DNA of 64,000 bases. Origin: an uncultured Candidatus Saccharibacteria bacterium (GTDB lineage: Bacteria; Patescibacteriota; Saccharimonadia; Saccharimonadales; UBA7683). The stretch is from the NCBI GenBank assembly GCA_964541305.1, contig CAZIPE010000001.1:12138-76137 (forward strand), read 5' to 3'. Shown piece after piece: positions 6,344 to 57,680 of this stretch; within the stretch, counting starts at the first letter, position 1; the number at the start of each line of letters is the position of its first letter. The position numbers and the translations under genes are program-made. The notes under the pieces are model-generated. The model was not told the DNA's origin, searched no databases, and worked only from the letters and a program-made list of their open reading frames with translations.

Positions 6344-6407
6344 ATAAATTGTATTATACCAATAAATACCATAAATAGCAATAGTATTATCTATATATCC
6401 TTTTTAC

Positions 6408-7898
6408 TTATTTTTTACGTTTTTGAAAAATGGTGCCACTTGCTCGTCGAATTCTTTCGGCATCTTCGTGTGTAAAGTACGGAATATGACTTCCTTTTTT
6501 GGTTGGAAACTGTTCCGGTTCAATTTTTAAATAAATTGCCACTGATTTGAGCGCTGCAGGAGTCATATCTAGTTCACCCGCCAGCCTACTGAGTCTCGTT
6601 GCACCTAAAGGTACCGTCTGCCCTTCAAGATAGACTCCACTCGCAATTTTTTTAAGGAGAGGCAGTATCCGCTTTGCTTGCTCGGAAAAGTGAACGTAAC
6701 TCATGTCTATTTCAATAGTTTGGAGCAACTCTTCTTCTGGGTCGACCTTAGCGCCTGAGTCTCGCCATATTCTATCAACCATAAGTAGACGTTCGGCGTT
6801 ACCGACAAAGTCAAGTACCTGAACGCGCGATTTTGCACCAGTCTTACGTAGACCACGGCCTAGTTGCTGAAGGTATATTCGTTTTGATCCTGTTTGGCGT
6901 TTAAATACAATCTGTGTTGCCTCTGGCACGTCTATACCTTCGTTAAAGGCGTCAACTGCACAAATTGTACTAATGCCACTGCCGGTCTTAAACGAGTTGA
7001 GTAGACGTTTACGCTCAGTTCTTGTGAGTTCAGAGTGGTAGGCGGCAGAATTTTGGAAGTAGCCCGAAAAATTTTCAGCGTCTTCAATTGAACTACAGAA
7101 AATTATTCGCTTCACTTCTTTAAGATTCTCAGACTTCTCATGTATTATTTTGGCTATTTCATCGTCGCGTTTTGGTACAAATACTTTGCGGTCTAATTGC
7201 TCAAAAGGATATTCCTCGCCGTAATCATCGATAAGTCTGCGCTCTTCAATAACTTCGTCAGTGATAATGTGATAGTCCACGCTTGCAAGGAGTCTATTAC
7301 GTATTGCCTCCTCAAGTGTCATGCTGTACACTTCTTGGCCAAAAATATCTCGAATATCTTTAACATCCATTCGATCAGGAGTCGCAGTTACGCCGAGCAA
7401 GTGTTCAAAATCAAAGTATCTTAGAGTGGGCTCGTAAGTGTCGGCTTTCGCGTGATGTCCTTCATCAACTGTGCCAAATGTAAACTCATCTTTCAAAAAA
7501 GCAGGATGCCATTCGCGCATCACTTGAAATGATCCGAATAAAACAGATACTTCATCATAGTTTCGGCCATCGCCGCTAAATAGTCCGTATTCAAACTCTT
7601 CTCCAACTATGGATTCAAATCGTTCGTGGGCTTGATTAAGGATGTCATTGTTATCATTCAGAAATAAACCACGAGCAGACGGGTCTCTTAGGAGTCTACG
7701 GCGGGCATCAGCGGCCATCACGGTTGTCTTGCCTAGTCCTGGCGCCATAACGATAAGCGAGGAGGTATTACCTTGTTTTTCATTTTCGGCAATCGCATCA
7801 AGGGCTTCAATTTGATAGTCACGCACCTCTACTTCTGGCACACGATGATTAATTTCTCTCATCAATTCAATACTGGAGAGTTCTTTTGGGGTACTCAT
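6408..7898 (-). CDS. SF2 helicase, ResIII/DEAD-DEAH (DExH) family
   Basis: Motif I APGLGKT, motif II DEGHH, motif III TATP, motif VI QQLGRGLR. Has a ~100-aa C-terminal extension. Confidence 0.85.
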   Translation of the reverse strand: MSTPKELSSIELMREINHRVPEVEVRDYQIEALDAIAENEKQGNTSSLIVMAPGLGKTTVMAADARRRLLRDPSARGLFLNDNNDILNQAHERFESIVGEEFEYGLFSGDGRNYDEVSVLFGSFQVMREWHPAFLKDEFTFGTVDEGHHAKADTYEPTLRYFDFEHLLGVTATPDRMDVKDIRDIFGQEVYSMTLEEAIRNRLLASVDYHIITDEVIEERRLIDDYGEEYPFEQLDRKVFVPKRDDEIAKIIHEKSENLKEVKRIIFCSSIEDAENFSGYFQNSAAYHSELTRTERKRLLNSFKTGSGISTICAVDAFNEGIDVPEATQIVFKRQTGSKRIYLQQLGRGLRKTGAKSRVQVLDFVGNAERLLMVDRIWRDSGAKVDPEEELLQTIEIDMSYVHFSEQAKRILPLLKKIASGVYLEGQTVPLGATRLSRLAGELDMTPAALKSVAIYLKIEPEQFPTKKGSHIPYFTHEDAERIRRASGTIFQKRKK

Positions 7899-8024
7899 AA
7901 TCTTCTAATTATACAACACAATACTCAAAAAAACAACATTCTGTTGCGGTTTATATCTCAGAGTAATTTGAGTAACTGCTAAGTATTTTCGTCTAAAGCT
8001 CATGTGATAAAGTATGTATTAGTC

Positions 8025-8420
8025 ATGAGCAATATAAAAATAGCGCTGATTGAAGACGATAAGGACATAGTAGATATGTATGTGACTCGTTTTCGAATTA
8101 CCGGTGGTTTTGAAGTAAAAGTTGCTAATGATGGAGCCCGTGGCTTAGAGCTTATTCACACTTTTCAACCCGACATCATTCTCCTGGACATGATGATGCC
8201 ACGTATGTCGGGCATAGAAACACTCACCCGTCTTCGAAAACTGCCCCACGGAGAAGACTATAAGGTCATCGCATTGACCAATATGAAAGATAATGATACA
8301 GTCAACAAAATTAAACTATTGCATGTCAGCGATTATCTCGTTAAAGCTGAACACTCTCCGGGCGCCATTGTTGAGAGAATCTATAGTATTGTCGGACAAA
8401 CTGCTGACGAAACAAAATAA
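8025..8420 (+). CDS. Stand-alone response-regulator receiver (CheY-like) protein
   Basis: IALIEDDKDIVDMY ... ILLDMMMPRMSGIE ... KVIALT receiver signature with no output domain. ATG at 8025; the ORF track begins at GTG 8004. Confidence 0.8.
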   Translation: MSNIKIALIEDDKDIVDMYVTRFRITGGFEVKVANDGARGLELIHTFQPDIILLDMMMPRMSGIETLTRLRKLPHGEDYKVIALTNMKDNDTVNKIKLLHVSDYLVKAEHSPGAIVERIYSIVGQTADETK

Positions 8421-8467
8421 CGAATAATACGGCAGGACGCCTAGGTCTATACTCCTTATCCTTTCTT

Positions 8468-8476
8468 TGCTACAAT
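8468..8476 (+). promoter_or_regulatory. Extended -10 element TGcTACAAT upstream of giant HK gene
   Basis: TGCTACAAT lies 42 nt upstream of the TTG start. The same 12-mer TGCTACAATAGA recurs upstream of the second giant gene at 13891. Confidence 0.35.
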
Positions 8477-8517
8477 AGACTACAGTTACGAGGAGATAAT
8501 ACAAGGGGAATAAGGGT

Positions 8518-11500
8518 TTGAAAAAACAACTTAGACTAAAACTAACTAAGTCTCTACTTGCTGTAATTGCTATAGTAAGTATTCTTCCTATTGTTCAACC
8601 GGTCTTTGCCCTACCAGAACCCACCGTATCTACTGACCCCGCAACGAACATCACCACAACAACTGCTACTCTAAACGGTACCGTCTCCGATGCCGGTGAT
8701 AGCCCAGTTACTTCACGTGGCTTCAACTATGGAACAACAGATAGTTACGGAAGTATCGCAAATGAGGTGATTCCTGAGAGTTATGAATACGTCTCGCAGT
8801 GGGGCTCAGCAGCGACAAATGATGGCAAGCTAAGCGCTCCTGATTCTGTCGTTATTGATTCTGCCGGTAACCGGTATGTATCGGATACCGATAACCACCG
8901 CATCCAAAAATTCAACAGCAGCGGTGTCTATCAGTCACAGTTCGGGGGCCCCACATTCGGATCTGGCGATGGTGAATTTATTTCTCCAAAAGGTATGGCT
9001 ATCGATTCGGGTGGCAATCTGTATGTCGCAGATTCGGGTAACCACCGCATCCAAAAATTCAACAGCAGCGGTGTCTATCAGTCACAGTTCGGGGGCAGTG
9101 GTACTGGCGATGGCCAGCTCAATAGACCCGACTCTGTCGTAATTGATTCGACTGGCAACATTTACGTTGCAGATACTAATAATCACCGCATCCAAAAATT
9201 CAACAGCAGCGGTGTCTATCAGTCTCAGTTTGGCTCTTACGGCTTTGGCGACGGCCAGTTTTATGCTCCACGAGGTATCTCTTTTGATTCTAGCAATAAT
9301 ATATATATCGTCGATTCAAACAACTCTCGCGTCCAAAAATTCAACAGTAGCGGCGTTTACCTATCCCAGTTTGGAGGCATTGGTTCGGGTGATGGCCAGT
9401 TTAACACTCCCTATGGCATAACTATAGATGCCAGTAACAATCTTTACGTTGCAGATACAAATAATCACCGCATCCAAAAATTCAACAGTAGCGGTGTCTA
9501 TCAGTCTCAGTTTGGCTCTATTGGCTCAGGTGATGGCCAGCTATTTCAACCTTCGGGCATTACGCTCGATACTGACGGTAGCTTTATGATTGCAGACACT
9601 GGAAACAACCGCATTCAGAAATTCAATAGCAGTGCCGTCTATCAGTCGAAATTCGGAATGAACTGCTCGGGTAATAGCCAGTTCAACTTCATTCAAGGCG
9701 TCGCAATCGACCCCGTCGGTGACGTATACGTCTCCGATGCCGACGACAAATGTGTCCAGAAATTCAACAGCACTGGCTTCTACCAGTCCCAGTTTGGCTC
9801 TTTTGGTACCCAAAATGGTCAACTTAACTTTCCTGGAAAAATTAATATAGACCCCAGTGGCAACATTTTTGTTGCTGATACGGTAAATAGTCGGGTCCAG
9901 AAATTCAATAGCAGCGGTGTCTACCAATCCCAATTTGGCGGTGGGGGCGCAGGTAATGGCCAGTTTACTAATCCCCGCGACCTCGCGTTTGACTCTTTTG
10001 GCAACATCTATGTTGTGGACAGTAGCAACCACCGTATTCAAAAATTCAATAGCAGCGGTGTCTACCAATCCCAGTTTGGCAGCCTAGGTTCTGGCGATGG
10101 CCAGTTTAATGGGCCAGTCGCTATCGCTGTAGATTCGTTCGATAATATCTATGTTGCAGATACAAATAATCACCGCATCCAAAAATTCAACAGCAGCGGT
10201 GTCTACCAGTCGAAATTCGGAAGTTACGGCTCTAGTAACGGCCAGTTTGCCGGTCCGAATGATCTCACATTTGACTCTCTCGGGAACATCTTTGTCCTCG
10301 ATACATATAACAACCGAGTCCAAAAATTCAACAGCAGTGGTGTCTATCTATTACAATTCGGTAGTGTCGGCTCTGGCAATGGCGAGTTTAGTCTGCCCCG
10401 AGCTATAGCTATCGATTCGAATGACACCATATACATAGGAGATACTCTTAATGAGCGCGTCCAAACATTCACTCAAGGCATGAACGAGGGAGCTTTTAGC
10501 ACTAACCTAACAAATCTGACCTGTGGAACAACCTACCATTATCAAGCCTATGCTAACAATAGCCATGGATCTACCCAAGCTATTGATGCTACCTTTTCCA
10601 CTGAAGCATGTGAACCAGGTCCCCCAACTAATCTTTCCGCTACTGCCAGCTCACCCTCGTCCATTAACATAACTTGGGACGAGCCCCAGGAGGCAGGGGA
10701 TTCTGCTATTTCCTACTATATAGTCTCCCTCAGGAAAGACGGAGATATTGACTGGGTATCTGCGCTGACGCCGGATAACAATACTACCTTTACTTGGATT
10801 GGTTTGGAGCCGGATACCCAGTACGAAATTAAAGTCAAGACTCGAAATACCAACGATTATATAAGTATATATTCAAATATAGTTACCGCGACTACCGATA
10901 TCTACGTAAATCCTACACCTGATCCACCAACTAACCTCCAGGCTACCATCGGCTCTTCAAGCACTATCAATGTGACGTGGAATGCGCCGGTAAACACTGG
11001 TGATTCACCGATTTCAAAATACTATATTTATTATCAAAAAGTGGGTGACGGTTCTTGGGGCAGCCTTGATCCAGATAATGACAACACATCTGCAACCATA
11101 TCGGGTTTACAACCGAGTACACAATACAACATTAAGGTGATTGCCAGAAATAGCAACAATAACGATAGTATCGACTCCGAAATTATTACCGCGACCACAG
11201 CTACTCCGGATTTTTATCTCATCACTGATTGTCAGCAGTTGCAGGATATTCAAAACGATCTTGTTGGAAACTATGAACTTGCGAGAGATATTGATTGTTC
11301 CGACAGCATCAATTGGAATGGTGGAAAAGGGTTTATACCAATAGGATCGCCGCTAACGGCCTCCCCGTTTTCCGGGATAATCGCAGGAAATAACTATACT
11401 ATTGAAGATCTATATATTAATCAAGATGGAGAGGAGTATGCTTTTGCAGCACTTTTTGGCGGTACTGATGGTGCTTTGATTCAAGACTTGCGTGTCGTCC

Positions 11501-13851
11501 GTCCTGTGATTTCTGCATTGAACTCATCTTTTAGTATTCCTGCGACTTTGACTGCATATGATGCCAGTACATCTTCCAAAACAACTACTTTTAACAATGT
11601 GCATATTGTTGATGCACACCTGGAGGGCGGAGGTGAGCTGATTACGGTAGCGGGTGGAATGGTGGGGCTTACTCAAAATTCAGGAACGGCAGCAGATAAC
11701 CTAAATGAGTTTCAGGGGACAATAGAACTTCATGGATCAATGGGCCAACTGGTGGTAGCTGGAGGCCTGTACGGTCAAATGGACGGCGGCATTCGGTCTG
11801 TTAATAATAGTTATGCAGTTGCTGATATTACTATCGAGAATACATTTTCAGGTTCAGGTGATTCATATAGTATAGCAGGGGGACTTCTCGGTGGGAATGG
11901 ATTAATTCAAAGGGAACCCACGCAATCAATATTTAATCACAGCTATGCTGCTGGCAGTATCTCTCACAATGGTGTTGATCCAAACGGCGGGATCGCGCTC
12001 GGGGGAACAACTGGATTAGTAACCAGGGATGGCTCTATAAGCAACACCTTTGCTCGTAACACCCTTACAAACACGCAATCTGATGCTACGGAGTTTGTTG
12101 GCGGTGTTGTCGCAGGCTTCTATGGTTCTGGGGATCGATCCTTTACCAACAACTACTTCGACGCCGACCAAGCCGGCACCACCGACTGCATCGATCCAGT
12201 CTTCGGCTCGATCTCCGGTTGCACCCCCATTCAAGGCCAACCCAACTACTTCTACAACAACACCACCAACGCCCCCCTCAACACTTGGGACTTCGACAAC
12301 ATCTGGAAGACTACCAGTACTCTCCCCGTTTTCGGAGAAAAAGTTCTGACTAGTATTACCGCCATCCCTGAATCGCGCCTCAACCCTGATCCAGTAACCC
12401 CACCAGCCGGCGGTGTCCCCGCCATCGCTGAACTGACTAAGAAACTAAAGGCCCCCACAGTCCTTACGCAACTGGCAGCTCAGGAGACCACCTCAGCTCC
12501 CAAAGAAGATACCGGCATCCTTGGTGCAATAAAACGTTTCTTCAAGAACATACCGGGGTCTGTCTTAGTCAGCTTCCCCTACATTCTGTTTGCTCTGCTT
12601 CTTCTGGCTGCTGGAGCTATGCTCGTTCAATTCCTCATTGGCTCCCGTAGACTTAAAGAGACTAAACTCCTCATTGCCAAACAAAAAGCCGTAGCCGAAG
12701 AACGAGACACCTTCTGGCACCTGGCTGCCAATTACCTCAGGGCTCCCATTACTCTCATGATCGGTGGCGTCGAGCTCCTGAGCACCGACAAAGATATTCG
12801 CTTGCCGGCTGTGGCTCAGCTGGAAGTCTTTGCTAAGAACTTACAAAAGAAAGTATTTGCCATTATGTCCCACATAGAACAAAGCCGCACGCTGCAGGAT
12901 ATCCATTGGCCTGAGCTGGAGAGCGGTGGCAGAGTCCTCACACAACTTAAGTTCTGGCTCCCGGTAGGCCTGGTTGCTTTCTTTGCCGTTTCCATGAACC
13001 TGGTCGCTAAGAACTACCGTAACCTCAGTGTGAGCACTACGAACCTGGCTATTCAGCTCCTTATCTTCATCCTAGTCTCAGTCTTGTTCTACTGGGTACT
13101 CAGTGCCCTGGGTCTCGTGAACCGAAAACGCAAACAAGCTCAGGCACTGCTGGAGCAGCAGTCAGCTACTCTCGATGATGCCCGTACCTACTTCATTGAG
13201 CAATCTGCTGCTACCCTCGACAAAGACCTATCTGACTTTGAAGCTCAACTCGACAGCATACCCAAGAAAGCTGCCTCGGTCGGTATTATCCATGAAGGCG
13301 CCCACCGTCTTAGAACCCTCATAGATAGCTTCGAGCTACTGGTCGCTGCCCAAAACAACAAACTAGACAACCTGTCTCCTGCCACGGCTCACACCCAGCT
13401 CAACACCATCTTCGACGGTGTCCTTGCCTCCCTGCAGCCCATTATTTCCCAGAAACAACTCAAGGTTGTCACTCCCAACCTCAACAACGTCACCCTCCCC
13501 GGTAACGCACTGTTACTTAACCAGGTCATTGGTAGTGTGGTCTCTAACGCTGTCGCCTTTAGCCCTTCTGGAAGTACCATACAACTTGATCTCAAACAAC
13601 ACAAAGACGGTACCCGTCTTAGTGTGACCAACCAAGGAGAGACCATTGATGAAGACCAGCTGTCTCATGTCTTTAGTCCTCTTACCAAAGCTGATGGCTA
13701 CGACGCCCTTCAACTTGACCACGGCGGCCTGGGGGTCAACCTCTACATAGACAGACTGATTATGCAGCACCTGGGAGGTGGCATAAGTGTGGCTTCAGAC
13801 GCGTCCAAAGGTACGACGCTTACTATGTTGTGGCCGAAAAATATAACATAG
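8518..13851 (+). CDS. Giant (1777 aa) membrane sensor histidine kinase with extracellular NHL-repeat propeller(s), FN3 domains and GLUG domain
   Basis: TTG start with AAGGGGAA SD. Signal peptide, then about 14 tandem NHL repeats (NHRIQKFNSSGVYQSQFG...) and 3 FN3-like modules (PPTNL..SxI.ItW). GLUG motifs (AGGLLGGNG..SYAAG). TM helices around aa 1320 and 1480-1540. H-box-like HLAANYLRAPI and HEGAHRLRTL. C-terminal HATPase_c with N, G1 and G2 boxes (NAVAFS, TNQGETID, GGLGVNLY). Confidence 0.85.
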   Translation: MKKQLRLKLTKSLLAVIAIVSILPIVQPVFALPEPTVSTDPATNITTTTATLNGTVSDAGDSPVTSRGFNYGTTDSYGSIANEVIPESYEYVSQWGSAATNDGKLSAPDSVVIDSAGNRYVSDTDNHRIQKFNSSGVYQSQFGGPTFGSGDGEFISPKGMAIDSGGNLYVADSGNHRIQKFNSSGVYQSQFGGSGTGDGQLNRPDSVVIDSTGNIYVADTNNHRIQKFNSSGVYQSQFGSYGFGDGQFYAPRGISFDSSNNIYIVDSNNSRVQKFNSSGVYLSQFGGIGSGDGQFNTPYGITIDASNNLYVADTNNHRIQKFNSSGVYQSQFGSIGSGDGQLFQPSGITLDTDGSFMIADTGNNRIQKFNSSAVYQSKFGMNCSGNSQFNFIQGVAIDPVGDVYVSDADDKCVQKFNSTGFYQSQFGSFGTQNGQLNFPGKINIDPSGNIFVADTVNSRVQKFNSSGVYQSQFGGGGAGNGQFTNPRDLAFDSFGNIYVVDSSNHRIQKFNSSGVYQSQFGSLGSGDGQFNGPVAIAVDSFDNIYVADTNNHRIQKFNSSGVYQSKFGSYGSSNGQFAGPNDLTFDSLGNIFVLDTYNNRVQKFNSSGVYLLQFGSVGSGNGEFSLPRAIAIDSNDTIYIGDTLNERVQTFTQGMNEGAFSTNLTNLTCGTTYHYQAYANNSHGSTQAIDATFSTEACEPGPPTNLSATASSPSSINITWDEPQEAGDSAISYYIVSLRKDGDIDWVSALTPDNNTTFTWIGLEPDTQYEIKVKTRNTNDYISIYSNIVTATTDIYVNPTPDPPTNLQATIGSSSTINVTWNAPVNTGDSPISKYYIYYQKVGDGSWGSLDPDNDNTSATISGLQPSTQYNIKVIARNSNNNDSIDSEIITATTATPDFYLITDCQQLQDIQNDLVGNYELARDIDCSDSINWNGGKGFIPIGSPLTASPFSGIIAGNNYTIEDLYINQDGEEYAFAALFGGTDGALIQDLRVVRPVISALNSSFSIPATLTAYDASTSSKTTTFNNVHIVDAHLEGGGELITVAGGMVGLTQNSGTAADNLNEFQGTIELHGSMGQLVVAGGLYGQMDGGIRSVNNSYAVADITIENTFSGSGDSYSIAGGLLGGNGLIQREPTQSIFNHSYAAGSISHNGVDPNGGIALGGTTGLVTRDGSISNTFARNTLTNTQSDATEFVGGVVAGFYGSGDRSFTNNYFDADQAGTTDCIDPVFGSISGCTPIQGQPNYFYNNTTNAPLNTWDFDNIWKTTSTLPVFGEKVLTSITAIPESRLNPDPVTPPAGGVPAIAELTKKLKAPTVLTQLAAQETTSAPKEDTGILGAIKRFFKNIPGSVLVSFPYILFALLLLAAGAMLVQFLIGSRRLKETKLLIAKQKAVAEERDTFWHLAANYLRAPITLMIGGVELLSTDKDIRLPAVAQLEVFAKNLQKKVFAIMSHIEQSRTLQDIHWPELESGGRVLTQLKFWLPVGLVAFFAVSMNLVAKNYRNLSVSTTNLAIQLLIFILVSVLFYWVLSALGLVNRKRKQAQALLEQQSATLDDARTYFIEQSAATLDKDLSDFEAQLDSIPKKAASVGIIHEGAHRLRTLIDSFELLVAAQNNKLDNLSPATAHTQLNTIFDGVLASLQPIISQKQLKVVTPNLNNVTLPGNALLLNQVIGSVVSNAVAFSPSGSTIQLDLKQHKDGTRLSVTNQGETIDEDQLSHVFSPLTKADGYDALQLDHGGLGVNLYIDRLIMQHLGGGISVASDASKGTTLTMLWPKNIT
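8880..10460 (+). repeat. Tandem ~120-126 bp DNA repeats encoding the NHL blades
   Basis: Near-identical segments caccgcatccaaaaattcaacagcagcggtgtctatcagtc recur about 14 times. They generate the spurious antisense ORFs in this region. Confidence 0.8.
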
Positions 13852-13890
13852 AATTACCAGTCATTTGCATAAGCATCATCTGATATTTCG

Positions 13891-13899
13891 TGCTACAAT
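13891..13899 (+). promoter_or_regulatory. Extended -10 TGcTACAAT 12 nt upstream of ATG (possible leaderless start)
   Basis: TGCTACAATAGA 12-mer shared with position 8468. No SD precedes the ATG at 13912. Confidence 0.3.
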
Positions 13900-13911
13900 A
13901 GAGCTTAAGTT

Positions 13912-16900
13912 ATGAGGGTAAAAAAAGACAGGAAGCTGGTATTTTTTAAACGTATACAAGACGTGTACGTCCGTTTGGGCTATTCATCTGTTAGTAAAGC
14001 CATAAAACGGTGGCTTCGGTTACCCGCTAAAGCTATCGCTGGAACCTTATTGACTGTGCACGGTTGGTTGCTACGGCATAGCCGAGTATATCGGGCGGTG
14101 AGTCGCTATGGCTCTCATCATCCCCGCCAGCGGATACTAGCCTCGTTTCTTACCGTACTTTTTGCTGGCTCTCTCCTCCTTCGTTTTGGGGCATATGCTT
14201 CAGACGTTAACAAGGTCTGGGACTTTTCGAATCCCACCGATTATTCTCTTGAGGACAGCGACAAACTCGAATATGAGGGTAGCTCTGTTCGCCTAAAGGC
14301 GCAAAATTACGCCACTGATTCAAATACAAAAGCTCTGTATCATCTTGATGAAGCCTCAGGAACGACGGTCGCGGATAGTTCAAGCAACTCCAATACCGCA
14401 ACCGCTACGAATCCAACTTGGGGAACGGGAAACCTCAATAATGCCCTCCAACTAAACGGCACCACAAGTCAGCTTAGTGCGGATGATTCAACCTCTCTTT
14501 CGCTTACTCAATCAAATACGCTGGAGGCCTGGACCAAATTCAATGACTCATTTACCGCAGGCAGTACTGCGGGCAGACAGTCGGTCATAGATAAAGGCCC
14601 CTATCAGCTGTATTATGATGACGAAACGGGCAAGGCTGTCTACGAGTTGCAAAACAGCTCGGCAACTAACTGGCAACAGCAAGCCGGCGGCGGCGTAAAC
14701 CGTAGCTGGGACCTTGATGGCAAAAACTCCGCCGATTCCTCAGTTGGAATCGGGAATGATCTCTACATAGGGACAGGTAGCTCTACGGCTGGTGACGCTG
14801 AAGTGTGGAAACTTTCAGCCGCTGGTGTGTGGACACAAATTGGCGGAGCAGGGCTCAATAATAGTTGGGCCGCCAACACCTTCGAGACTATTGCCTCTTT
14901 GGAAACTGATGGCACCAACCTGTATGCCGGTACCGGTCTATCGAGTGGAGATGGTGAGGTCTGGATGTGGAACGGTACCACTTGGTCACGCATAGGCGGT
15001 GATGCTATTAACTCAAGCTGGGCAGTTAACACCTATAACTCGGTTCTAAGTATGGATTACTTTGGCGGCAATCTTTACGCGGGTCTCGGTAGCGGTACGG
15101 GCGGAGGTGAGGTTTGGCGATATAACGGAAGCAGCTGGACCAAGATTGGTGGCGATGGACTCAGCAGTAGCTGGGCGGCTGCCTTTACCGTCAAGCGATT
15201 AGAAAATGATGGCACCAACCTGTACGCCGGTACCGGGAACACTGCCGGCATGGCGGACGTATGGCGCTGGAATGGTACCATTTGGGCCCAAATCGGTGGT
15301 GACGGAATCAATAGTAGCTGGGCGGCCAGTACCTACGAGGAAGTGCTTAGTTCATTCTATATGGGCTCCAACCTGTACATTGGGCTTGGCACCACAGCCG
15401 GTGACGCCGAGGTGTGGCGCTGGAGTGGAGGTGCCTGGACAAAACTTGCCAGCAGTGGTGTCGGCTTCCCTGCTGCGACCTACACCGGCGTGTATAGCCT
15501 AAGTGGTGATGGCACCAATCTCTATGCTGGGGTCGGCTCCGGAGTAAATCTCGGCGACGTCTGGAAATATAACGGTAGCACCTGGACTCAAGTTGGTAAT
15601 GATGGCCTCAATTCAAGTTGGACAGGAGGCAGATTAGTCTCCACCATGGCGTATGTCAACTCTAAATTATTTGCTCACAACACATTTAGTGCGGTCGCGA
15701 CCATACCGCTCTATTCATATAACGGTTCAGTCTGGCAACGCGAAGGAGGGCAGTATTTTGATGGCAGTTGGGGTTACACCGCTTTTAACGCCGTACAATC
15801 TATGACCACAAGCAGTGGTAAGCTGTATGCTGGCCTGACCTCGACCTATGGTGGAGCGATTGTATTTGAGTTTAATGGAGGTGTGTGGCAACAGATCGGT
15901 GGCAACCTAACAAATGGAAGTTGGGATCTCGGCACTTTTAATGCGATCGAGAGCATGACTTCATACAACGGTAATCTCGTTGTCGGTACGACTGGTACTG
16001 TTAATGGAGACGCCGAAGTGTGGTCGTGGGACGGCAGTACCTGGACTAAACTTGGTGGTGACGGCTTAAGTTCAAGCTGGAACGTCAGCTATAGTGCAAC
16101 GAAGAGCCTAGCGGTAAATGCGGGTATACTCTACGCCGGTGTGGGTTCCACCGGCAATAATGGTGGCATCTGGAAGTACGAAAGCGGCACCTGGGTTAAG
16201 ATTGGCGGCGACGGTACCAATGGAAGCTGGAACAACGTATTTCGCTATGTGACTTCGATGAACTTCTATAACGGTGAGTTGGTGGCTGGCGGTACAGGTA
16301 GTACTACATCCTCTGCTGAAGTTTGGAAGTGGAATGGATCTTCGTGGACAAAAATTGGCGGCGATGGTGTGGGCAGTAGCTGGAATGCCGCTAACTACTT
16401 GGAGGTTAATGCACTGGCAACCTATCAGGGTAAGCTGATTGCCGGGATTGGTGGATCAGCGGGCGATGGTGAGGTATGGCGATATGATGGCACGACCTGG
16501 ACATTGATTGGTGGCGATAGCGTCGACAGTAGTTGGGATGGCACTACTACTCACCGTCGGGTGGCCACATTAACTGTCTACAACGGCGATCTTTACGCGG
16601 GAACGAGCGGTTCAGCAGGCGATGGTGAGGCCTGGAGATATAACGGCTCTACGTGGTCCCAGGCTGGTGGTGACAGTATAAGTAGCAGTTGGACGAATGC
16701 AATTATTTCTGTGCGATCAATGGTGGTATATAAAGGGAAATTATACACTGGCTTAGGAGACAATATATCGTTACATCCATTAGTGTATTCACTTGGTAAT
16801 AACGGCTATTTGGAGTCAACAAATAGTTCCTACAATACCGATTGGCGACATATTGCTGCCACCTATGATGGTACAACTATGAAGCTTTACATTAATGGGC

Positions 16901-19900
16901 AGCTTGATGCTAGTACGGCCGTTTCGCTTTCTATGTCTGACACTTCCTCACCGCTGCTTATAGGTTCGGCACAAGGGCCGGTGACCGCCAGTAAGGGTAC
17001 TGGTAAATTTAAGGGTATGCTCGATGAAGTTCGCATTAGTAATTCTGCGCGGACCAACTTCACAACGACACCTTATACCAGCGAAAGAGTGTCTGCTCGG
17101 CTTGCTACGGCAGATTACACCTCCGGGATTGCCTCGTGGGATGATTATATTTCTTCCGAAACAACAAATGGCGGCACCCTCACCTATCGTCTCTCAGATG
17201 ATGACGGCACCACCTGGAAATTCTGGAATGGTTCTGCTTGGGCTGTCTCTGCTGATCTGAGCCAGGCCAATGGTGCGACTGACATTGGCGATCATATCGC
17301 CACTTTCCCAGTCTCTACTGGCGGCATAACCTGGCAAGCGGTGTTTGATGGTGATGGCAATCAGCGCGTACAGCTTAATTCGGTTTCGCTTGCAGCCACT
17401 GCAGATAACACCGCACCTGCAGCAAATGCATCGAGCATTGTAATGAAAACGAGTCCTTCCGGCCCTACGATCAATTCCGGACAATGGACAAATGCCCAGG
17501 AGCCGTACTTTTCGTGGACACCTGGGAACGATGCCCAATCTACCATTAAGGGTTACTGTCTCTATCTAGGTACATCTCAAAGTGATGACCCGGTAACTTC
17601 CAAGGGTCTGCTTGGCACAAGTCCTCTCGATACCGACGGTGAATGTCAATTCGCTGTTGCCGGAGACTCGGTAGATCTTTCCACATCAGGTTATCTCGGA
17701 AGCCCTCTCGTCAGTTCAAATTCAACTTACTATCTTAATGTTAAAGCCATAGATAATGCCGGTAATGTATTCACTGGTGCCAGTGAGAGTTTTGCGTTTA
17801 AATTCGACAATACCAATCCGACCAATCCTCTCTTTGTGTCTGCGCCCTCACAATTTGTGTCTAACAAGCAGGTTACAATTACCTGGCCAACTTCTAATGC
17901 CACCGCTGCAGACGATAATCATTCTGGTGTTGCAGGTCTGCAATACAAAATTGGCGCTGGTGGAACCTGGTATGGCGATGGGCATACAGGTGCTCAAGAT
18001 GTTACCGACCTTCTGGCAGACGACGGGAGTTACCAGACAATCGATCCAATCGACTTTAATGCATTGAGTGATGGAAATAACACCATCTACTTTAGAACTT
18101 ATGACAATGCCGGTAACTTTTCTGCTTCGACAGTGACAGGAGTGATTAAAATTAATACCACCTCACCTACTGGACCACAAAATGTGACTGCCACACCAGC
18201 TACCAATACCACAAATGCCTTTGCTTTCAGCTGGAGTCCGCCAGCTACATTTGGAGGTTCAGCAAGCAACTTGGAGTACTGCTACTCGATCAATACTCTT
18301 CCCTCTGTTAATACTTGTACGTATACCGACCCCGGCGTGACAAGTCTTGTTTCCGGAGCGTATGCAACTCAGCCTGGCGAAAACACTTTTTATGTTGTGG
18401 CTAAAGATGAAGCTGGAAATATTAATTACGCTACCACCAGCAGTGCTATATTTACTGCCAACACCTCTGCTCCTGGTATTGCTCTTAATCTGGATATCGT
18501 CGATATAAGTGTGAAATCGACTAATAATTGGCGTTTAGCACTATCATGGGACGAGCCGACCGATGCGGGAGCTGGAATAGCAAGCTATAAGGTATATCGT
18601 TCTGCTGATAATATAACGTTTACCAACGTTGCCTCGACCGCTGGAACCAGCTATGTTGACGGCGGACTCTCTCAGCAACCGTATTACTACAAGGTTCGAG
18701 CCTGCGATTCTGCGAATAATTGCGGTGCTTATACGAGTGCCGTAGACGAAACACCAACCGGAAAGTACACGACTGCTGCAAATAGTACCAGTGCGCCGGA
18801 AGTATCAAGTGTCAGTACGCGTAAAGCAACCATTAGTTGGTCTACGGATCGTCAAAGTGATAGCCGCATTCAATATGGCATAAAGAGTGGTCAGTATTTC
18901 GCTACCGAAGCTGCCATATCTGATCAAGTCACCGACCATGAAGTACTCCTTAATAATCTGAGCGCTGGCACCACCTATTATTACAAAGCTAAATGGACAG
19001 ATGAAGATGGAAATACGGGACAATCGGCAGAGCTTAGCTTTAAAACAGCACCAGCCCCAGTCGTAAAAGAGGTCACTTCAGAACCATCCTTGTCAGATGC
19101 AGATATTAACTTCACCTCCAAAGATGCCGCAAAAGTGAAGATATACTTTGGTAAGTCAGAAAGCTTTGGAGGCCTCACCACCCTAAACACGTCGTTGGCT
19201 GAATCGAAATACGGCACCACGCTTACGGGCTTGGACGACGGAAGTAAGTATTTCTTTAAACTCAATACTCTCGACAGCGATGGTAATGAATACGAAGGAA
19301 ATGTCTATTCTTTTACCACTCCCCCACGTCCTCGCATTACGAATTTACGATTCCAACCTGTAAAAGACCAGCCCAGTAGCACCCAGAGAGTAACCTGGAA
19401 TACCAACGTTCCTTCGAGTAGTGAAATTACCTACGGCGTTCGTCGACCTACGCAGTCGCTCTCGCAATCTAAGCTCACCACTGAGCATGAGATAACAATT
19501 AAGGGTCTATCTGATGACAGTGACTACGTTTTAATAGCCCGGTCGCGTGATGCCAGCGGTAATGTTGCCACCTCCGATCAGCAAAGCTTTAAAACCGCTC
19601 TCGATACCCGCCCGCCGAAAATTGCCGATATTACGGTCGATACCTCAATACGCGGTACCGGGGCTGAAGCGCGCGGTCAGGTGGTTATTAGCTGGAAGAC
19701 AGATGAACCAGCCACCAGTCAGGTTGCTTACGGTGAAGGATCATCCGGTTTTCTCTCGAGTGTCAGCAGCGAGGATGCCAAGTTAACTACCGACCATGTT
19801 GTAGTGGTATCAGATCTTTCAACCTCACGTGTCTACCATTTCGAAGCACGATCATTTGACCGGGCTCGGAATGAGGCCAAGGGTGATCAACAAGTTGCCA

Positions 19901-19974
19901 TCATCGGTCGAGCCAGTGAAAATGTGCTCAGCATCATATTCAACGCGCTGCAAAAGATGTTCGGAATAAACTAA
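13912..19974 (+). CDS. Giant (2020 aa) N-terminally anchored surface protein: LamG/ConA-like domains, ~14 x 55-aa Trp/Gly-rich propeller-like repeats, FN3 and purple-acid-phosphatase-N-like FN3 modules
   Basis: N-terminal TM anchor (LASFLTVLFAGSLLLRF). LamG-like signatures (W.HIAATYDG..MKLYINGQ...FKGMLDEVRISN). Repeats of consensus GDGEVWRYNGSxWTKIGGDGxxSSW. C-terminal modules with SW.TD...Y......H.V.L..L..GT.YYYK pattern repeated 4 times. Confidence 0.85.
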   Translation: MRVKKDRKLVFFKRIQDVYVRLGYSSVSKAIKRWLRLPAKAIAGTLLTVHGWLLRHSRVYRAVSRYGSHHPRQRILASFLTVLFAGSLLLRFGAYASDVNKVWDFSNPTDYSLEDSDKLEYEGSSVRLKAQNYATDSNTKALYHLDEASGTTVADSSSNSNTATATNPTWGTGNLNNALQLNGTTSQLSADDSTSLSLTQSNTLEAWTKFNDSFTAGSTAGRQSVIDKGPYQLYYDDETGKAVYELQNSSATNWQQQAGGGVNRSWDLDGKNSADSSVGIGNDLYIGTGSSTAGDAEVWKLSAAGVWTQIGGAGLNNSWAANTFETIASLETDGTNLYAGTGLSSGDGEVWMWNGTTWSRIGGDAINSSWAVNTYNSVLSMDYFGGNLYAGLGSGTGGGEVWRYNGSSWTKIGGDGLSSSWAAAFTVKRLENDGTNLYAGTGNTAGMADVWRWNGTIWAQIGGDGINSSWAASTYEEVLSSFYMGSNLYIGLGTTAGDAEVWRWSGGAWTKLASSGVGFPAATYTGVYSLSGDGTNLYAGVGSGVNLGDVWKYNGSTWTQVGNDGLNSSWTGGRLVSTMAYVNSKLFAHNTFSAVATIPLYSYNGSVWQREGGQYFDGSWGYTAFNAVQSMTTSSGKLYAGLTSTYGGAIVFEFNGGVWQQIGGNLTNGSWDLGTFNAIESMTSYNGNLVVGTTGTVNGDAEVWSWDGSTWTKLGGDGLSSSWNVSYSATKSLAVNAGILYAGVGSTGNNGGIWKYESGTWVKIGGDGTNGSWNNVFRYVTSMNFYNGELVAGGTGSTTSSAEVWKWNGSSWTKIGGDGVGSSWNAANYLEVNALATYQGKLIAGIGGSAGDGEVWRYDGTTWTLIGGDSVDSSWDGTTTHRRVATLTVYNGDLYAGTSGSAGDGEAWRYNGSTWSQAGGDSISSSWTNAIISVRSMVVYKGKLYTGLGDNISLHPLVYSLGNNGYLESTNSSYNTDWRHIAATYDGTTMKLYINGQLDASTAVSLSMSDTSSPLLIGSAQGPVTASKGTGKFKGMLDEVRISNSARTNFTTTPYTSERVSARLATADYTSGIASWDDYISSETTNGGTLTYRLSDDDGTTWKFWNGSAWAVSADLSQANGATDIGDHIATFPVSTGGITWQAVFDGDGNQRVQLNSVSLAATADNTAPAANASSIVMKTSPSGPTINSGQWTNAQEPYFSWTPGNDAQSTIKGYCLYLGTSQSDDPVTSKGLLGTSPLDTDGECQFAVAGDSVDLSTSGYLGSPLVSSNSTYYLNVKAIDNAGNVFTGASESFAFKFDNTNPTNPLFVSAPSQFVSNKQVTITWPTSNATAADDNHSGVAGLQYKIGAGGTWYGDGHTGAQDVTDLLADDGSYQTIDPIDFNALSDGNNTIYFRTYDNAGNFSASTVTGVIKINTTSPTGPQNVTATPATNTTNAFAFSWSPPATFGGSASNLEYCYSINTLPSVNTCTYTDPGVTSLVSGAYATQPGENTFYVVAKDEAGNINYATTSSAIFTANTSAPGIALNLDIVDISVKSTNNWRLALSWDEPTDAGAGIASYKVYRSADNITFTNVASTAGTSYVDGGLSQQPYYYKVRACDSANNCGAYTSAVDETPTGKYTTAANSTSAPEVSSVSTRKATISWSTDRQSDSRIQYGIKSGQYFATEAAISDQVTDHEVLLNNLSAGTTYYYKAKWTDEDGNTGQSAELSFKTAPAPVVKEVTSEPSLSDADINFTSKDAAKVKIYFGKSESFGGLTTLNTSLAESKYGTTLTGLDDGSKYFFKLNTLDSDGNEYEGNVYSFTTPPRPRITNLRFQPVKDQPSSTQRVTWNTNVPSSSEITYGVRRPTQSLSQSKLTTEHEITIKGLSDDSDYVLIARSRDASGNVATSDQQSFKTALDTRPPKIADITVDTSIRGTGAEARGQVVISWKTDEPATSQVAYGEGSSGFLSSVSSEDAKLTTDHVVVVSDLSTSRVYHFEARSFDRARNEAKGDQQVAIIGRASENVLSIIFNALQKMFGIN

Positions 19975-20741
19975 TGGAACCAGCTGTAAAGACATCACAT
20001 TCTGGCAGAAACATGTGTGAGTTTAAGAATGTGTCTAAATCGTTCACATCCAAAGACCTGACTATCTCAGTTCTCAAAAATATAAACTTCACTATCCCTG
20101 AAGGCAGTTTTACAATACTCTATGGCCCATCTGGAAGTGGCAAAACGACCATCTTGAATACTATGATTGGTCTTCAACCTGCCACAAGCGGGAAGGTCTG
20201 TGTGAACGGCACTGATCTATACAGTCTCGATAGCGATAAACGGGCTCACTTTCGTGCTTCTACGCTTGGTATGGTGCACCAAGATAACTATTGGGTAAAC
20301 AGTCTTACCGTTCTTGAAAATATCGCCTTACCACTCCTGCTGGCTGGCTGGGACCATAAAAAGGCCTTGATGGTAGCACAACAAAGCTTGGTTCGAGTGG
20401 GGCTGGAGAGTTATGGTAACTATAACCCCACAGTACTCTCCGGGGGGCAGCAGCAACGCGTTTCTTTTGCTCGAGCTACCGTCATACGGCCAAAACTGCT
20501 AGTAGCTGATGAACCGACAGGCAATCTTGATAGCAAAAATGGCGAGCTTATTATTAGCCTTCTACAGGATTTCAACAGTCGCTACAATGCAACCGTAGTG
20601 CTCGTTACTCATAATCTTGAATTACTTGCTCTCAGTAATAATCTTATTAGCGTCAAGGATGGTCAGATTGTTGAATCAAGCACCCCCGATCCTACCGTCA
20701 AGTTCATGACAGCTTCAATTGCAGGGAAGAAACCAAAATGA
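19974..20741 (+). CDS. ABC transporter ATP-binding protein, MacB/LolD/FtsE family
   Basis: Walker [10 protein letters not shown], signature [14 protein letters not shown], Walker [13 protein letters not shown]. The start overlaps the upstream stop (TAATG). A later start at [11 protein letters not shown] (20013) is also possible. Confidence 0.8.
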
Positions 20742-22021
20742 AAATTCCTAAAACAAATCTCAAAAAAAATGTAAATGAAGCGAAAGGCACTATTCGCTGG
20801 AGCTTACTGATAGATATTGCATTCAAAAATCTATTTTACAAGAAGCTCCGGACCTCACTGACTATTATTGGTGTTGTCATCGGTGTAGGTGCGGTGGTAT
20901 TCCTACTTGCTTTTGGTTTTGGCCTACGTGATGTAGTAACTCGGCAGGTTGTGGATTCAAATTCTATTCGTACCATTGATGTTGAGAGTGCGAAATCTCA
21001 GCTGGTGACACTTAACCAGGAGACTATCGGCAAAATTACGCAAATTGAAGATGTTACCGATGTCTCACGGGTATATAGTGTCGCTGGTAATACAACCTAT
21101 GGAAATTCTCAAATTGAATCAGTGCTATACGGGGTTGATCAAGAGTATCTCGATCTGGCTAATGTAAAACTCTCAGCTGGGCAGCCACCCCAGTTTAAAA
21201 ATGCTGACGATATTTTCGTCAATACTTCTTATGCCAAAGCAATCGGAATTTCAGACAGCAAAGACCTTATAGGCAAGGAGCTCGAGGTGTCATTAGAGGC
21301 TCCGGTGCCGCAGCTTGCTGAAGAAGCTGAAAATAACGATACTGGTCCGGAGTCCGCTGTCGCTACGAAAGAAGTGGTGATTAAGGGCAAGGTGGCAAGC
21401 GTATTTGAAACAGGCAGCGGTTCTGAACTGTACGTTTCGAGTAACATATTTGATGATTTTGGCTTTGAAGATGCAAGTCAGTTGAAGGTACTGGTTGATC
21501 GAAAAGAACAAGTTGTTGAGGCGCAGAAGAAGATTGAAGCTCTGGGACTTATTACGGTTTCACCACTTAGCACGCTCGAACAAATTAACCAGGTATTCGG
21601 TTTTCTTAACCTACTATTTCTGGGCTTTGGTGGCATTGGTCTCATTATTGCTGTTTTAGGTATGTTTAACACACTCACTATCTCGCTACTCGAGCGCACC
21701 AAAGAAATTGGTTTGATGATTACACTTGGAGCACGCAAAAAAGATATTCTACGCTTGTTTGTAGTAGAAGCCGTCGGTCTTTCAATGATTGGTGGTGCTC
21801 TCGGAGTGGTAGTAGCGTATGGGATAAGTCGAATTGCTGATGTGGTGCTCAATGGGTTCGCCCGTTCAAGAGGTGTCACCGACACATTCACTATTTTCGC
21901 GTTCAAGCCCGTGCTGATTTTGGCTGTCTTTGTTTTCTCGGCCCTCCTTGGTTTACTTGTGGTCTATTTCCCCGCCAAGCGAGCCGCAAATATTAACCCA
22001 ATTGAAGCTCTCAAGTCGTAA
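20738..22021 (+). CDS. ABC transporter permease, FtsX/MacB-type (type VII ABC)
   Basis: ATGA overlap with the ATPase gene. One N-terminal TM, a ~230-aa periplasmic domain, then three C-terminal TMs with FtsX-like LxERxKEIGxMxxLGA motif (LLERTKEIGLMITLGA). Confidence 0.8.
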   Translation: MKIPKTNLKKNVNEAKGTIRWSLLIDIAFKNLFYKKLRTSLTIIGVVIGVGAVVFLLAFGFGLRDVVTRQVVDSNSIRTIDVESAKSQLVTLNQETIGKITQIEDVTDVSRVYSVAGNTTYGNSQIESVLYGVDQEYLDLANVKLSAGQPPQFKNADDIFVNTSYAKAIGISDSKDLIGKELEVSLEAPVPQLAEEAENNDTGPESAVATKEVVIKGKVASVFETGSGSELYVSSNIFDDFGFEDASQLKVLVDRKEQVVEAQKKIEALGLITVSPLSTLEQINQVFGFLNLLFLGFGGIGLIIAVLGMFNTLTISLLERTKEIGLMITLGARKKDILRLFVVEAVGLSMIGGALGVVVAYGISRIADVVLNGFARSRGVTDTFTIFAFKPVLILAVFVFSALLGLLVVYFPAKRAANINPIEALKS

Positions 22022-22055
22022 GTGCTATACTGATGAGCATAAGAAGGATTAACCC

Positions 22056-26590: not shown

Positions 26591-26950
26591 TCATGTTGCA
26601 GGTTTCTCGCGGAGCGTGTTAACTATTTTTTGTAAAATTAGTAATATTTCTTGTGTCTCTTTCAAGTATTTATCAGTCGCTAATTCATCTGTCAGTTCTG
26701 TGATTATTCTAAGCCAATAACGACTTTCACTCGCCTCTTTTTTTGCTATGAATATTTTATTTCTGAAATCAGCGCGAGAACTTGCGTTCTGAGCTTCTGA
26801 ATAATTGGCACCTACACTTGTTGAAGATCGTATGACCTGATCAATTACAGAAAATGGAAGAGCTTCTCTATATTGCTGAGTCAGTTTAATTACATTTACA
26901 CCAAAATTTAAAAATCGTTGTTCCAGCTCTTCGCTTTGCTTTGTTTTCAC
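26591..26950 (-). CDS. Four-helix-bundle protein (TIGR02436; 23S rRNA IVS-protein family)
   Basis: Family signature QVIRSSTSVGANYSEAQNASSRADFRNKIFIAKKEASESRYWL. Confidence 0.7.
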   Translation of the reverse strand: MKTKQSEELEQRFLNFGVNVIKLTQQYREALPFSVIDQVIRSSTSVGANYSEAQNASSRADFRNKIFIAKKEASESRYWLRIITELTDELATDKYLKETQEILLILQKIVNTLREKPAT

Positions 26951-28833: not shown

Positions 28834-28862
28834 TATGGTATCCAGTATAGCACCTGAGACTG

Positions 28863-36646: not shown

Positions 36647-36856
36647 AAACTTCCTCTCTTATTACGTTTATTTCGACCAGTTATGTTAATGAACAGACTA
36701 AAAAAGTCTTTGGTTATCGCATTGCCAAAGACTTAGGGACAAAAACAAAGTGTTTGTTTCACGCCTCGGTAAGTCTTATTGATTGTGTACAATCTGCTTA
36801 CTGTCTTTGGTAATGATCTGTAATATCTTACAGTAGTTGAACAGATTGGTCAATAC

Positions 36857-36887
36857 ATTGACATTAATAGATAAAACGTGCTATAAT
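36857..36887 (+). promoter_or_regulatory. Sigma70-like promoter (TTGACA-N19-TGcTATAAT) directly abutting GGDEF gene start
   Basis: TTGACA at 36857 and TGCTATAAT at 36879-36887. The ATG at 36895 is 7 nt downstream, consistent with a leaderless transcript. Confidence 0.4.
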
Positions 36888-48841: not shown

Positions 48842-48969
48842 AAAAACCTTTCAAGAAATACGTTTTTCCAATTTATAACAAAACAAATAGATTTCAATTT
48901 TCGAAGTTCACAATTTCGAAACAAGAAATGTAAGTGCGTAACAGATAGATTATAGCAAAATCATAGCTA

Positions 48970-53479: not shown

Positions 53480-53536
53480 GGGTAGAATTTCAACCTACTA
53501 ACTGCTACAATTTCTGCGGTACATTAACTACATTAT

Positions 53537-57626: not shown

Positions 57627-57680
57627 TGATATAAATTATAGCATTATGAGAACACTCCCCAAAGTACAGTGGTTATGATA

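Follow-up and report, generated by a model that had tools for sequence, protein, structure and literature searches.

Type VII ATP-binding cassette (ABC) transporters of the FtsEX kind act together with dedicated extracytoplasmic proteins, among them EnvC, PcsB, CwlO, and RipC, which dock through a helical element, and ATP hydrolysis is thought to be passed mechanically to these partners and not used for transport (PMC7668044, PMC10694151, PMC6705773). The MacB-family pairs of monoderm bacteria, represented by Spr0694-0695 of Streptococcus pneumoniae and YtrEF of Bacillus subtilis, combine a permease that has four transmembrane (TM) helices and an extracytoplasmic core with a separate ATPase, and YtrF has been proposed to act on cell-wall enzymes through protein-protein interaction (PMC8060467). 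In the BceAB-BceRS module, the gene for an ABC transporter with an FtsX domain lies near that for a histidine kinase; BceB has 10 TM helices, BceS is an intramembrane-sensing kinase, BceR binds DNA, and the genes are conserved neighbors. We describe here a locus that shares features with all three systems and lies in a 64,000-nt stretch of DNA from an uncultured Candidatus Saccharibacteria bacterium (the window, to the whole of which the coordinates of open reading frames, ORFs, refer). It encodes a stand-alone receiver (REC, 8004-8420, 138 aa), a sensor kinase (8518-13851, 1777 aa), a giant surface protein that we name BIG (13912-19974, 2020 aa), an ABC ATPase (19974-20741, 255 aa), and a MacB-type permease (20738-22021, 427 aa), the product of what we call the FtsX gene. 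All five ORFs are on the + strand, and their coordinates and lengths match exactly those listed in an earlier, sequence-only reading of this DNA.

That reading took the five genes to encode a single sensing and signaling complex at the cell surface. Conserved order of all five genes in related genomes had been set beforehand as the check on this proposal; what we find instead is two separately conserved modules, five-gene synteny being absent from every related genome examined. It is very likely that the locus is made up of two independent units that are merely neighbors in this genome, REC with the kinase and BIG with the ABC ATPase and the permease, because there are kinase loci without the BIG operon, BIG loci without the kinase, and separate TGCTACAAT motifs before the kinase gene and BIG. 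To the fuller explanation, in which a REC-kinase pair stands beside a transporter-actuated BIG fiber, we assign a probability of roughly 0.6.

Gene order in related genomes

Kinase loci were collected by scanning a profile of the kinase C-terminus over one genome per GTDB species, which returned nine Saccharibacteria loci (L007-L015), and by protein look-ups, which added three more (L003, L004, and L035). The neighborhoods of the nine GTDB loci and of two metagenome loci were then searched by tblastn with every window protein. Fourteen loci with a BIG-type operon came from a permease scan of metagenomes and from look-ups of homologues of the giant protein and the permease. All relatives found in genome collections are metagenome-assembled genomes (MAGs) of Candidatus Saccharibacteria or Saccharimonadia. 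In L007-L014, L003, L004, and L035, the 10 kb downstream of the kinase contain nothing homologous to BIG, its two transporter genes, or the AI-2E transporter gene next to the window operon, and these loci include those of the closest kinase relatives, L007 and L014 (59-78% identity). The kinase family is found upstream of the BIG-type operon in none of the 14 related loci, the two closest relatives included, and the order BIG-ABC-FtsX is kept in all 14. Where gene coordinates are reported (four loci), the junctions within this operon are gaps of at most 9 nt or overlaps of 4-11 nt. At the P0124 locus (62% identity) the genes downstream of the operon, AI-2E, CysS, and DHH, are those of the window and the upstream genes differ; an AI-2E gene follows the BIG operon in the window and at this locus only. 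The P0124 locus also has, about 2 kb upstream of the BIG operon, a gene for a 701-aa Glug-motif protein that lacks a kinase domain (4930-7035, - strand).

The junctions in the window follow the same division. The five genes had been called tightly coupled, which is true of BIG, ABC, and FtsX, joined as proposed by a TAATG overlap at 19974, where the ABC start overlaps the BIG stop, and an ATGA overlap at 20738, where the permease start overlaps the ABC stop. The description does not fit the rest of the locus, in which REC and the kinase gene are parted by 97 nt and the kinase gene and BIG by 60 nt. Each of these two gaps contains one extended -10 promoter-like motif, TGCTACAAT, at 8468-8476 (+) before the kinase gene and at 13891-13899 (+), 13 nt 5' of the BIG ATG. 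The motif belongs to a set, TGCTAYAMT, with 10 copies in the window against 2.9 expected, a count that no shuffled sequence attained; it alone is enriched, sites from a sigma-70 and terminator scan of the window being no more numerous than in shuffled sequence. Another copy, TGCTATACT (22023-22031, +), precedes the AI-2E transporter gene outside the module, and further copies are at 28844-28852 (-), 36879-36887, 48949-48957 (-), 53503-53511, and 57635-57643 (-). Several copies lie close 5' of genes, with the end of the motif often just 8-13 nt from the start codon, a spacing which suggests that leaderless or near-leaderless transcripts may be frequent in this genome. In the case of BIG, the copy at 13891-13899 implies that the gene would have its own promoter and a near-leaderless transcript.

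The receiver and the kinase

REC is a Response_reg protein (Pfam 4.9e-21) that consists of a single domain, with no output domain in its 138 aa, and its true start is probably the ATG at 8025 (MSNIK...). Orthologues from L010-L014 keep the acidic pair D19/D20, the phospho-Asp D62, T92, and K114, and with these residues and no output domain REC has the make-up of a CheY-like single-domain receiver. It is encoded directly upstream of the kinase in L010, L011, L012, L013, and L014 (43-69% identity by tblastn), and this distribution suggests that REC and the kinase form a Saccharibacteria-specific two-component pair. As the sequence-only reading had noted, there is no DNA-binding response regulator among the window ORFs scanned; the output of a single-domain REC would run through protein-protein contacts or a phosphorelay. 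The genes ftsA and ftsZ flank the REC-kinase pair in two Saccharimonadales MAGs, L011 (5692-13763) and L012 (5699-13251), with the start of REC overlapping the ftsA end in L011. This location is a hint of a link between the pair and cell division; the contexts in other loci differ.

A hydropathy scan of the kinase (8518-13851) gives a signal peptide, about 1320 extracellular residues, a first TM helix (aa 1356-1374; 12583-12639), a cytoplasmic loop of about 100 aa, a TM hairpin (aa 1479-1528; 12952-13101), and a cytoplasmic C-terminus with the HATPase_c domain. Its extracellular architecture is as unusual as had been supposed, with some revision of the parts. The NHL array is real (Pfam NHL 5e-95) and comprises 12 blades of 47 aa, not about 14 (aa 96-655; 8803-10482), a number given by motif spacing and by a 141-nt tandem period in the DNA; the blades probably make up two six-bladed propellers. 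The predicted fn3 modules follow, two in number (aa 700-895; 10615-11202; Pfam fn3 1e-31 in two stretches), and after these comes a GLUG-type domain of about 400 aa (aa 895-1290; 11200-12387). The profile of this last region matches the N-terminal region of the S. pneumoniae IgA1 protease (PDB 6xjb residues 170-385, E 1.5e-16), and Pfam Glug matches eight of 13 homologous domain copies. The GLUG assignment therefore stands at the level of the profile and not for the window copy taken alone, which has no Pfam match. The isolated kinase N-terminus likewise gave no Pfam match even at E<=10. In the IgA1 protease the GLUG motif accompanies an M26 protease, whereas the domain here has no protease domain beside it, is fused to a kinase, and is usually present in two copies.

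Comparison of the subfamily shows how the window architecture departs from the usual one. Most members are about 1400 aa long and are arranged X-fn3-X-TM-kinase, where X is the GLUG-type domain; the window kinase and two other representatives have the NHL array in place of the first X copy, and the array is present in the closest relatives only. On these alignments the GLUG-type domain appears to be the hallmark and conserved sensor element of the subfamily, and the 12-blade array a lineage-specific replacement of the first GLUG copy. The Bacteroides hybrid sensors BT4663 and BT3049 are also kinases with tandem propeller ectodomains, which bind glycans. The window kinase, however, has blades of the NHL type and lacks a Y_Y_Y domain, a fused receiver, and an AraC output, and the Bacteroides sensor structures 3v9f, 3ott, and 4a2l are among the fold matches of the BIG model and not of the kinase.

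The HATPase_c domain assigned by the sequence-only reading is present (13504-13839; Pfam 6.3e-15, above the cut-off), while the HisKA domain expected with it has no Pfam match in the window kinase. The N, F, and G2 boxes can be recognized, and the G1 box reads NQGET instead of DxGxG, with Asn for the usual Asp. Between the first TM helix and the TM hairpin, which is kept in the family alignment, is a DHp-type region (DHp1) with the H-box EERDTFWHLAANYLRAPITLMIG (12697-12765), in which the alignments place Asn1405 at the canonical His position and an invariant His at 1401. This loop carries the most conserved segment of the family (EERDTFWHLAANYLRAPxTL). A second DHp-like helical hairpin (DHp2, 13135-13377) directly precedes the ATPase domain; in the family profile it aligns to the DHp of WalK/VicK, its His position is Ala or variable, and no member has His there. 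The H-box DHp is thus not directly N-terminal to the ATPase domain but is parted from it by the TM hairpin and this His-less hairpin.

We searched exhaustively for this core with HMMER among 1.84 billion cluster representatives, using residues 1340-1640 only as the query. At least 371 representatives match the whole kinase module (240 at E<=1e-10 and 37 at E<=1e-30), and the best 150 of the 371 are 200-4656 aa long. The H-box motif was scored among the best 147 representatives, those that carry the region, and splits them into two groups. All of the approximately 38 closest representatives have FWHLAANYLRAP or a near variant, with the canonical His replaced by Asn and an invariant His four residues upstream, and about 105 more distant ones have SHYLRTPLT, the canonical HisKA H-box. 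Several of the latter give weak HisKA matches about 210 aa upstream of HATPase_c. Set against the HisKA-type kinases WalK/VicK and HK853, the window protein has an ATPase domain and preceding hairpin that can be aligned to the DHp and catalytic domain of WalK/VicK (E ~1e-25), and distant members of the family carry the SHYLRTP H-box. What sets the window kinase apart from WalK/VicK and HK853 is the separation of the H-box DHp from the ATPase domain, the lack of a Pfam HisKA match, and, in its own subfamily, a His that lies four residues N-terminal of the canonical position. The phospho-acceptor has probably moved by one helical turn, the canonical His having become Asn1405, and we infer that His1401 serves in its place. 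On this evidence the kinase would be HisKA-derived, new in its split DHp layout and relocated histidine, and a member of a large architectural family with the DHp separated from the ATPase domain, apparently undescribed.

Two observations concern the range of the family. The L004 locus has two divergently oriented kinase paralogues, one of 1698 aa (4709-9805, -) with the canonical H-box LASHYLRTP, the other of 461 aa (10001-11386, +) with the shifted H-box FWHLAANYLRAP and almost no ectodomain. In addition, five members (P0309, P0311, P0327, P0339, and P0368), which are 3254-4656 aa long, have the TM-DHp-TM-TM-DHp2 core at their C-terminus, and with members of this size the family has extremely large extracellular regions in some organisms.

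The changes in the H-box and the G1 box leave room for an alternative account of this unit, in which the 1777-aa protein is a pseudokinase or a phosphatase-only sensor and REC is phosphorylated by another kinase. We regard this as unlikely. Asn1405 at the canonical His position, the NQGET sequence in place of DxGxG, and the missing Pfam HisKA match would all fit, and the window does contain a second, canonical, orphan kinase, a 548-aa PAS-HisKA-HATPase_c protein (50407-52053, -) with no adjacent response regulator, which could supply the phosphoryl group. The stretch FWHLAANYLRAP with His1401 is, however, the most strongly conserved segment of the subfamily, which argues that a catalytic role is retained. 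Moreover, the G1 Asp is kept in most subfamily members, Asn occurring sporadically in otherwise canonical relatives, and the N and G2 boxes are intact.

BIG and its transporter

The ABC ATPase and the permease belong to the MacB/FtsX fold (type VII), as had been proposed (Pfam ABC_tran 3.3e-30, MacB_PCD 2.8e-14, and FtsX 2.4e-19). The ATPase has an intact Walker A, signature, Walker B with catalytic Glu, and H-loop, and its nearest solved structures are Spr0694, the nucleotide-binding domain of MacB, LolD, and YtrE; those of the permease are MacB, YtrF, and Spr0695. MacB_PCD covers permease residues 39-268 and FtsX residues 297-421, the extracytoplasmic core domain being about 230 aa long, and a TM scan places four helices at approximately 41-59, 292-310, 341-359, and 392-410. 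Spr0694-0695 and YtrEF, which share this layout, are the closest solved sequences; identity to them is low (phmmer E ~1e-21 to 1e-24), and neither has a giant co-encoded surface protein.

Several identities for the pair were considered and rejected. It is not an orthologue of the housekeeping systems, a possibility raised with the original assignment, since its scores are far below the NCBIfam cut-offs both for FtsEX (24-32 bits against 225-255 for the FtsX models and 185.6 against 264.85 for FtsE) and for LolCDE (53.9 against 362 for lolCE and 201.8 against 307.75 for LolD). The organism is single-membraned, hence there is no outer-membrane destination for LolCDE-type traffic. A MacAB-TolC pump is disfavored by a permease score of 94 bits against a MacB cut-off of 966 and by the absence of an adaptor gene from the operon; in the seven loci with Pfam-annotated gene tables, no operon includes a membrane-fusion adaptor of the MacA/HlyD type. 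A module of the BceAB-BceRS type is at odds with the four TM helices of the permease and with the gene order in relatives, all of which lack adjacent kinase and transporter genes. Type VII transporters were expected in the sequence-only reading to signal to a kinase or to activate an extracytoplasmic partner. We retain the dedicated extracytoplasmic partner, which would be BIG and not the kinase.

BIG is encoded by the first gene of this three-gene operon, whose distribution indicates wide conservation in Saccharimonadia. Full-length orthologues of BIG number at least 120, have 50-66% identity to it, and are all 1940-2090 aa long; they are found on contigs up to complete genomes of 1.1-1.2 Mb. 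They come from Saccharibacteria or Saccharimonadales, where their annotation goes no further than LamG-domain, fn3-domain, or hypothetical protein. The whole ectodomain is highly and evenly conserved, and conservation drops only over the first ~80 residues. In the N-terminal region (13912-14199) the hydropathy scan shows one hydrophobic segment (aa 75-93) behind a basic tail and ahead of AYA/SD; this would be a signal anchor or, alternatively, a long signal peptide that is cleaved off.

The N-terminal head proved to be built differently from what had been proposed, namely two LamG domains flanking a propeller of ~55-aa W/G repeats. There is one LamG jelly roll, split by the repeats. Residues 125-262 (14284-14697) have no Pfam match alone, but when the propellers were removed in silico and this piece was concatenated with residues 951-1056 (16762-17079; Pfam Laminin_G_3), the joined sequence matched Laminin_G_3 once and over its full length (70 bits; positions 1-146 of a 151-position profile). 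The intervening region (14698-16761) contains about 14 W/G repeats, 13 of them clear copies, with a period of 50-51 aa in place of ~55; the propeller assignment itself is upheld by fold matches of the model. The region is confidently modeled as a large all-beta repeat structure (pLDDT 88, pTM 0.82), and the best PDB fold matches are tandem seven-bladed propellers, first among them in Foldseek the GH74 xyloglucanase 5jwz (E 5e-17, 14% identity), together with double WD40 proteins. According to this model the W/G repeats would form a pair of seven-bladed beta-propellers inserted in LamG. Neither the isolated repeat region nor the BIG N-terminus gave any Pfam match, even at E<=10. As in GH74 enzymes, the cleft between the two propellers would suit glycan binding; BIG has no sequence-family match in this region, and its propeller pair sits inside a LamG domain.

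C-terminal to the head is a conserved stalk of Ig/fn3/PAP-N-like domains (aa 1146-1995; 17347-19896), in which Pfam fn3 and Pur_ac_phosph_N bear out the predicted PAP-N/FN3 modules; a sequence search of the stalk against the PDB returned nothing meaningful. The protein ends in an amphipathic tail, ...AIIGRASENVLSIIFNALQKMFGIN (19897-19971), that is invariant in all orthologues and in variants with a different head, with conservation that reaches the last residues (AIIGRAS(D/E)SVL.I..N.LQK.FG.). Two of these variants are informative. In L038, where the permease is 54% identical to that of the window, the partner has 1830 aa and aligns to BIG only C-terminally (55% identity), and in L039, the complete genome CP064998.1 (permease 44% identical), the partner has 1505 aa, a DUF2341 head, and 45% identity to BIG. 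Both share only BIG residues 1146/1164-2019, tail included. Stalk and tail thus travel with the transporter, and the head is swappable. Another complete genome, that of L033 (1.2 Mb), has a gene for a stand-alone 123-aa receiver (16217-16588, -) directly after the FtsX gene.

These features lead us to a tentative mechanism, which we hold at somewhat less than even odds. BIG would be a surface fiber with a distal, exchangeable N-terminal head, a stalk of about 860 aa, and a C-terminal amphipathic helix; the head, with its LamG domain and two seven-bladed propellers, would presumably bind glycans. We infer that the permease's extracytoplasmic domain is where the C-terminal helix docks, so that the transporter would serve as both membrane socket and ATP-driven actuator, with ATP hydrolysis passed mechanically to the fiber so as to anchor it and switch its conformation, and with no solute transported. 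The model for this proposal is the action of FtsEX on EnvC, PcsB, CwlO, and RipC, and the suggestion made for YtrF. Like FtsEX, the window pair is a type VII complex with a dedicated extracytoplasmic protein, and docking of BIG through a helical element is proposed by analogy. There are also differences from FtsEX: the permease has a full MacB-type core domain and does not count as an orthologue of FtsX, BIG is a lectin-like fiber of 2020 aa in which no hydrolase domain can be recognized, and a single operon with translational coupling encodes both BIG and the transporter.

The fact that the nearest sequence relatives, MacB, Spr0694-0695, and YtrEF, are of the efflux type, and that a family member bears the annotation of antimicrobial peptide transport permease in one source, would fit an ordinary MacB-type exporter of antimicrobial peptides, lipids, or glycolipids, which shares an operon with BIG for regulation or because BIG needs the export and is not mechanically coupled to it. 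We find this distinctly unlikely, since the transporter subfamily always follows a BIG-type gene, even where the head has been swapped, with junctions that are tight or overlapping wherever gene coordinates are reported; an exporter would also leave the invariant extreme C-terminus of BIG to be explained, and there is no gene for a membrane-fusion adaptor.

The single N-terminal hydrophobic segment of BIG opens another possibility, that the transporter pulls this anchor out of the membrane in the manner of LolCDE and hands the fiber over to the cell wall, the surface layer, or a host cell. The MacB-fold systems LolCDE and HrtBA do draw hydrophobic moieties out of the outer leaflet (PMC8333309, PMC9271180). 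In BIG, however, the N-terminal region is the least conserved part, the AXA-type site after the segment suggests ordinary cleavage by signal peptidase, and it is the C-terminus that co-varies with the transporter, all of which make extraction quite improbable.

That all five genes encode one surface-sensing complex, in which the transporter and BIG signal to the kinase as BceAB does to BceS and the output passes through REC, is highly improbable. In its favor, the five genes lie side by side in one orientation both in the window and in L001 and L002, contigs of the same strain; the scan saw no terminator that would part the kinase gene from BIG; and a stand-alone REC (only distantly similar to that of the window) also adjoins the BIG operon in L033. 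Against it, no related locus has this arrangement, not even those of the closest relatives of either half; each half is conserved alone, the kinase gene and BIG have separate promoter-like motifs, and the permease has four TM helices like MacB against the 10 of BceB.

A number of points nevertheless weigh against our preferred explanation of two independent units with an actuated fiber. Because the terminator scan saw none between the kinase gene and BIG, read-through from one to the other may be possible in the window genome, and L003, L004, and L035, which are loci of more distant subfamily members, do not have REC beside the kinase. The G1-box Asp is replaced by Asn in the three closest relatives of the window kinase as well; in other GHKL ATPases this change abolishes ATP binding, and the kinase could on this account be inactive or a phosphatase only. 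An AlphaFold2 model of kinase residues 895-1777, built with six homologues, has a mean pLDDT of 48.6 and is too poor for a fold search. As for the second unit, the N-terminal hydrophobic segment of BIG could be a true membrane anchor, in which case a C-terminal tether would be unnecessary, and the transporter could be an ordinary exporter merely co-transcribed with BIG.

The locus in its genome and its lineage

The genes that flank the locus are ordinary housekeeping genes (helicase, CysRS, DHH, RecR, DnaB, and DnaX). Between 12001 and 18000, a stretch that takes in the kinase gene's 3' half and BIG's 5' two-thirds, GC content is 0.49-0.52 compared with ~0.43 elsewhere in the window, and GC skew shifts sharply at ~12-14 kb; the rise in GC could stem from the amino-acid composition of Gly/Ala/Trp-rich repeats or from a different origin by horizontal transfer. 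Elsewhere, a 789-aa ORF (41418-43787, -) combines thymidylate kinase with ThyX (two Thy1 stretches) in an apparent Tmk-ThyX fusion. Two further features are ordinary, a gene for a 23S rRNA intervening-sequence protein (26591-26950, -; annotated in L001 as PF05635) and a ribosomal protein L10 leader (36690-36828, -; Rfam 47.3 bits).

Saccharibacteria are epibiotic, ultrasmall bacteria that, like other members of the Candidate Phyla Radiation (CPR), live attached to host cells, and to our knowledge little is established about how CPR surface structures are built and controlled. The literature that we searched on Saccharibacteria envelope and signaling genes contains nothing on the genes of either module. 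In the transposon-insertion sequencing (Tn-seq) tables of Southlakia epibionticum, no protein has PF13385 or PF16656, and the MacB-type pairs of this organism (SEML1_0053/54 and SEML1_0385-87) are in different contexts. The only Saccharibacteria strain with Tn-seq data apparently lacks a BIG orthologue, and its fitness data are therefore not transferable to BIG.

For the kinase family, the split DHp and relocated histidine offer a natural test case for the geometric limits of histidine-kinase autophosphorylation, and annotation with the standard HisKA model misses a sizeable group of CPR sensor kinases. With length and identity conserved across much of the class, BIG-ABC-FtsX is a strong candidate for a core envelope machine, and in terms of sequence it looks to be a type VII ABC transporter whose giant partner is without precedent. 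The most far-reaching interpretation, which we consider doubtful in its entirety, has two separate parts: a kinase family whose histidine has moved by one turn in a DHp topologically apart from the ATPase domain, and a previously unrecognized type VII ABC machine, a MacB-fold socket and actuator of a 2000-residue fiber with an exchangeable head, by which many environmental Saccharibacteria may engage or release host or environmental glycans. If it is true that the transporter actuates the fiber, the mechanotransmission principle of FtsEX would reach a new class of partner.

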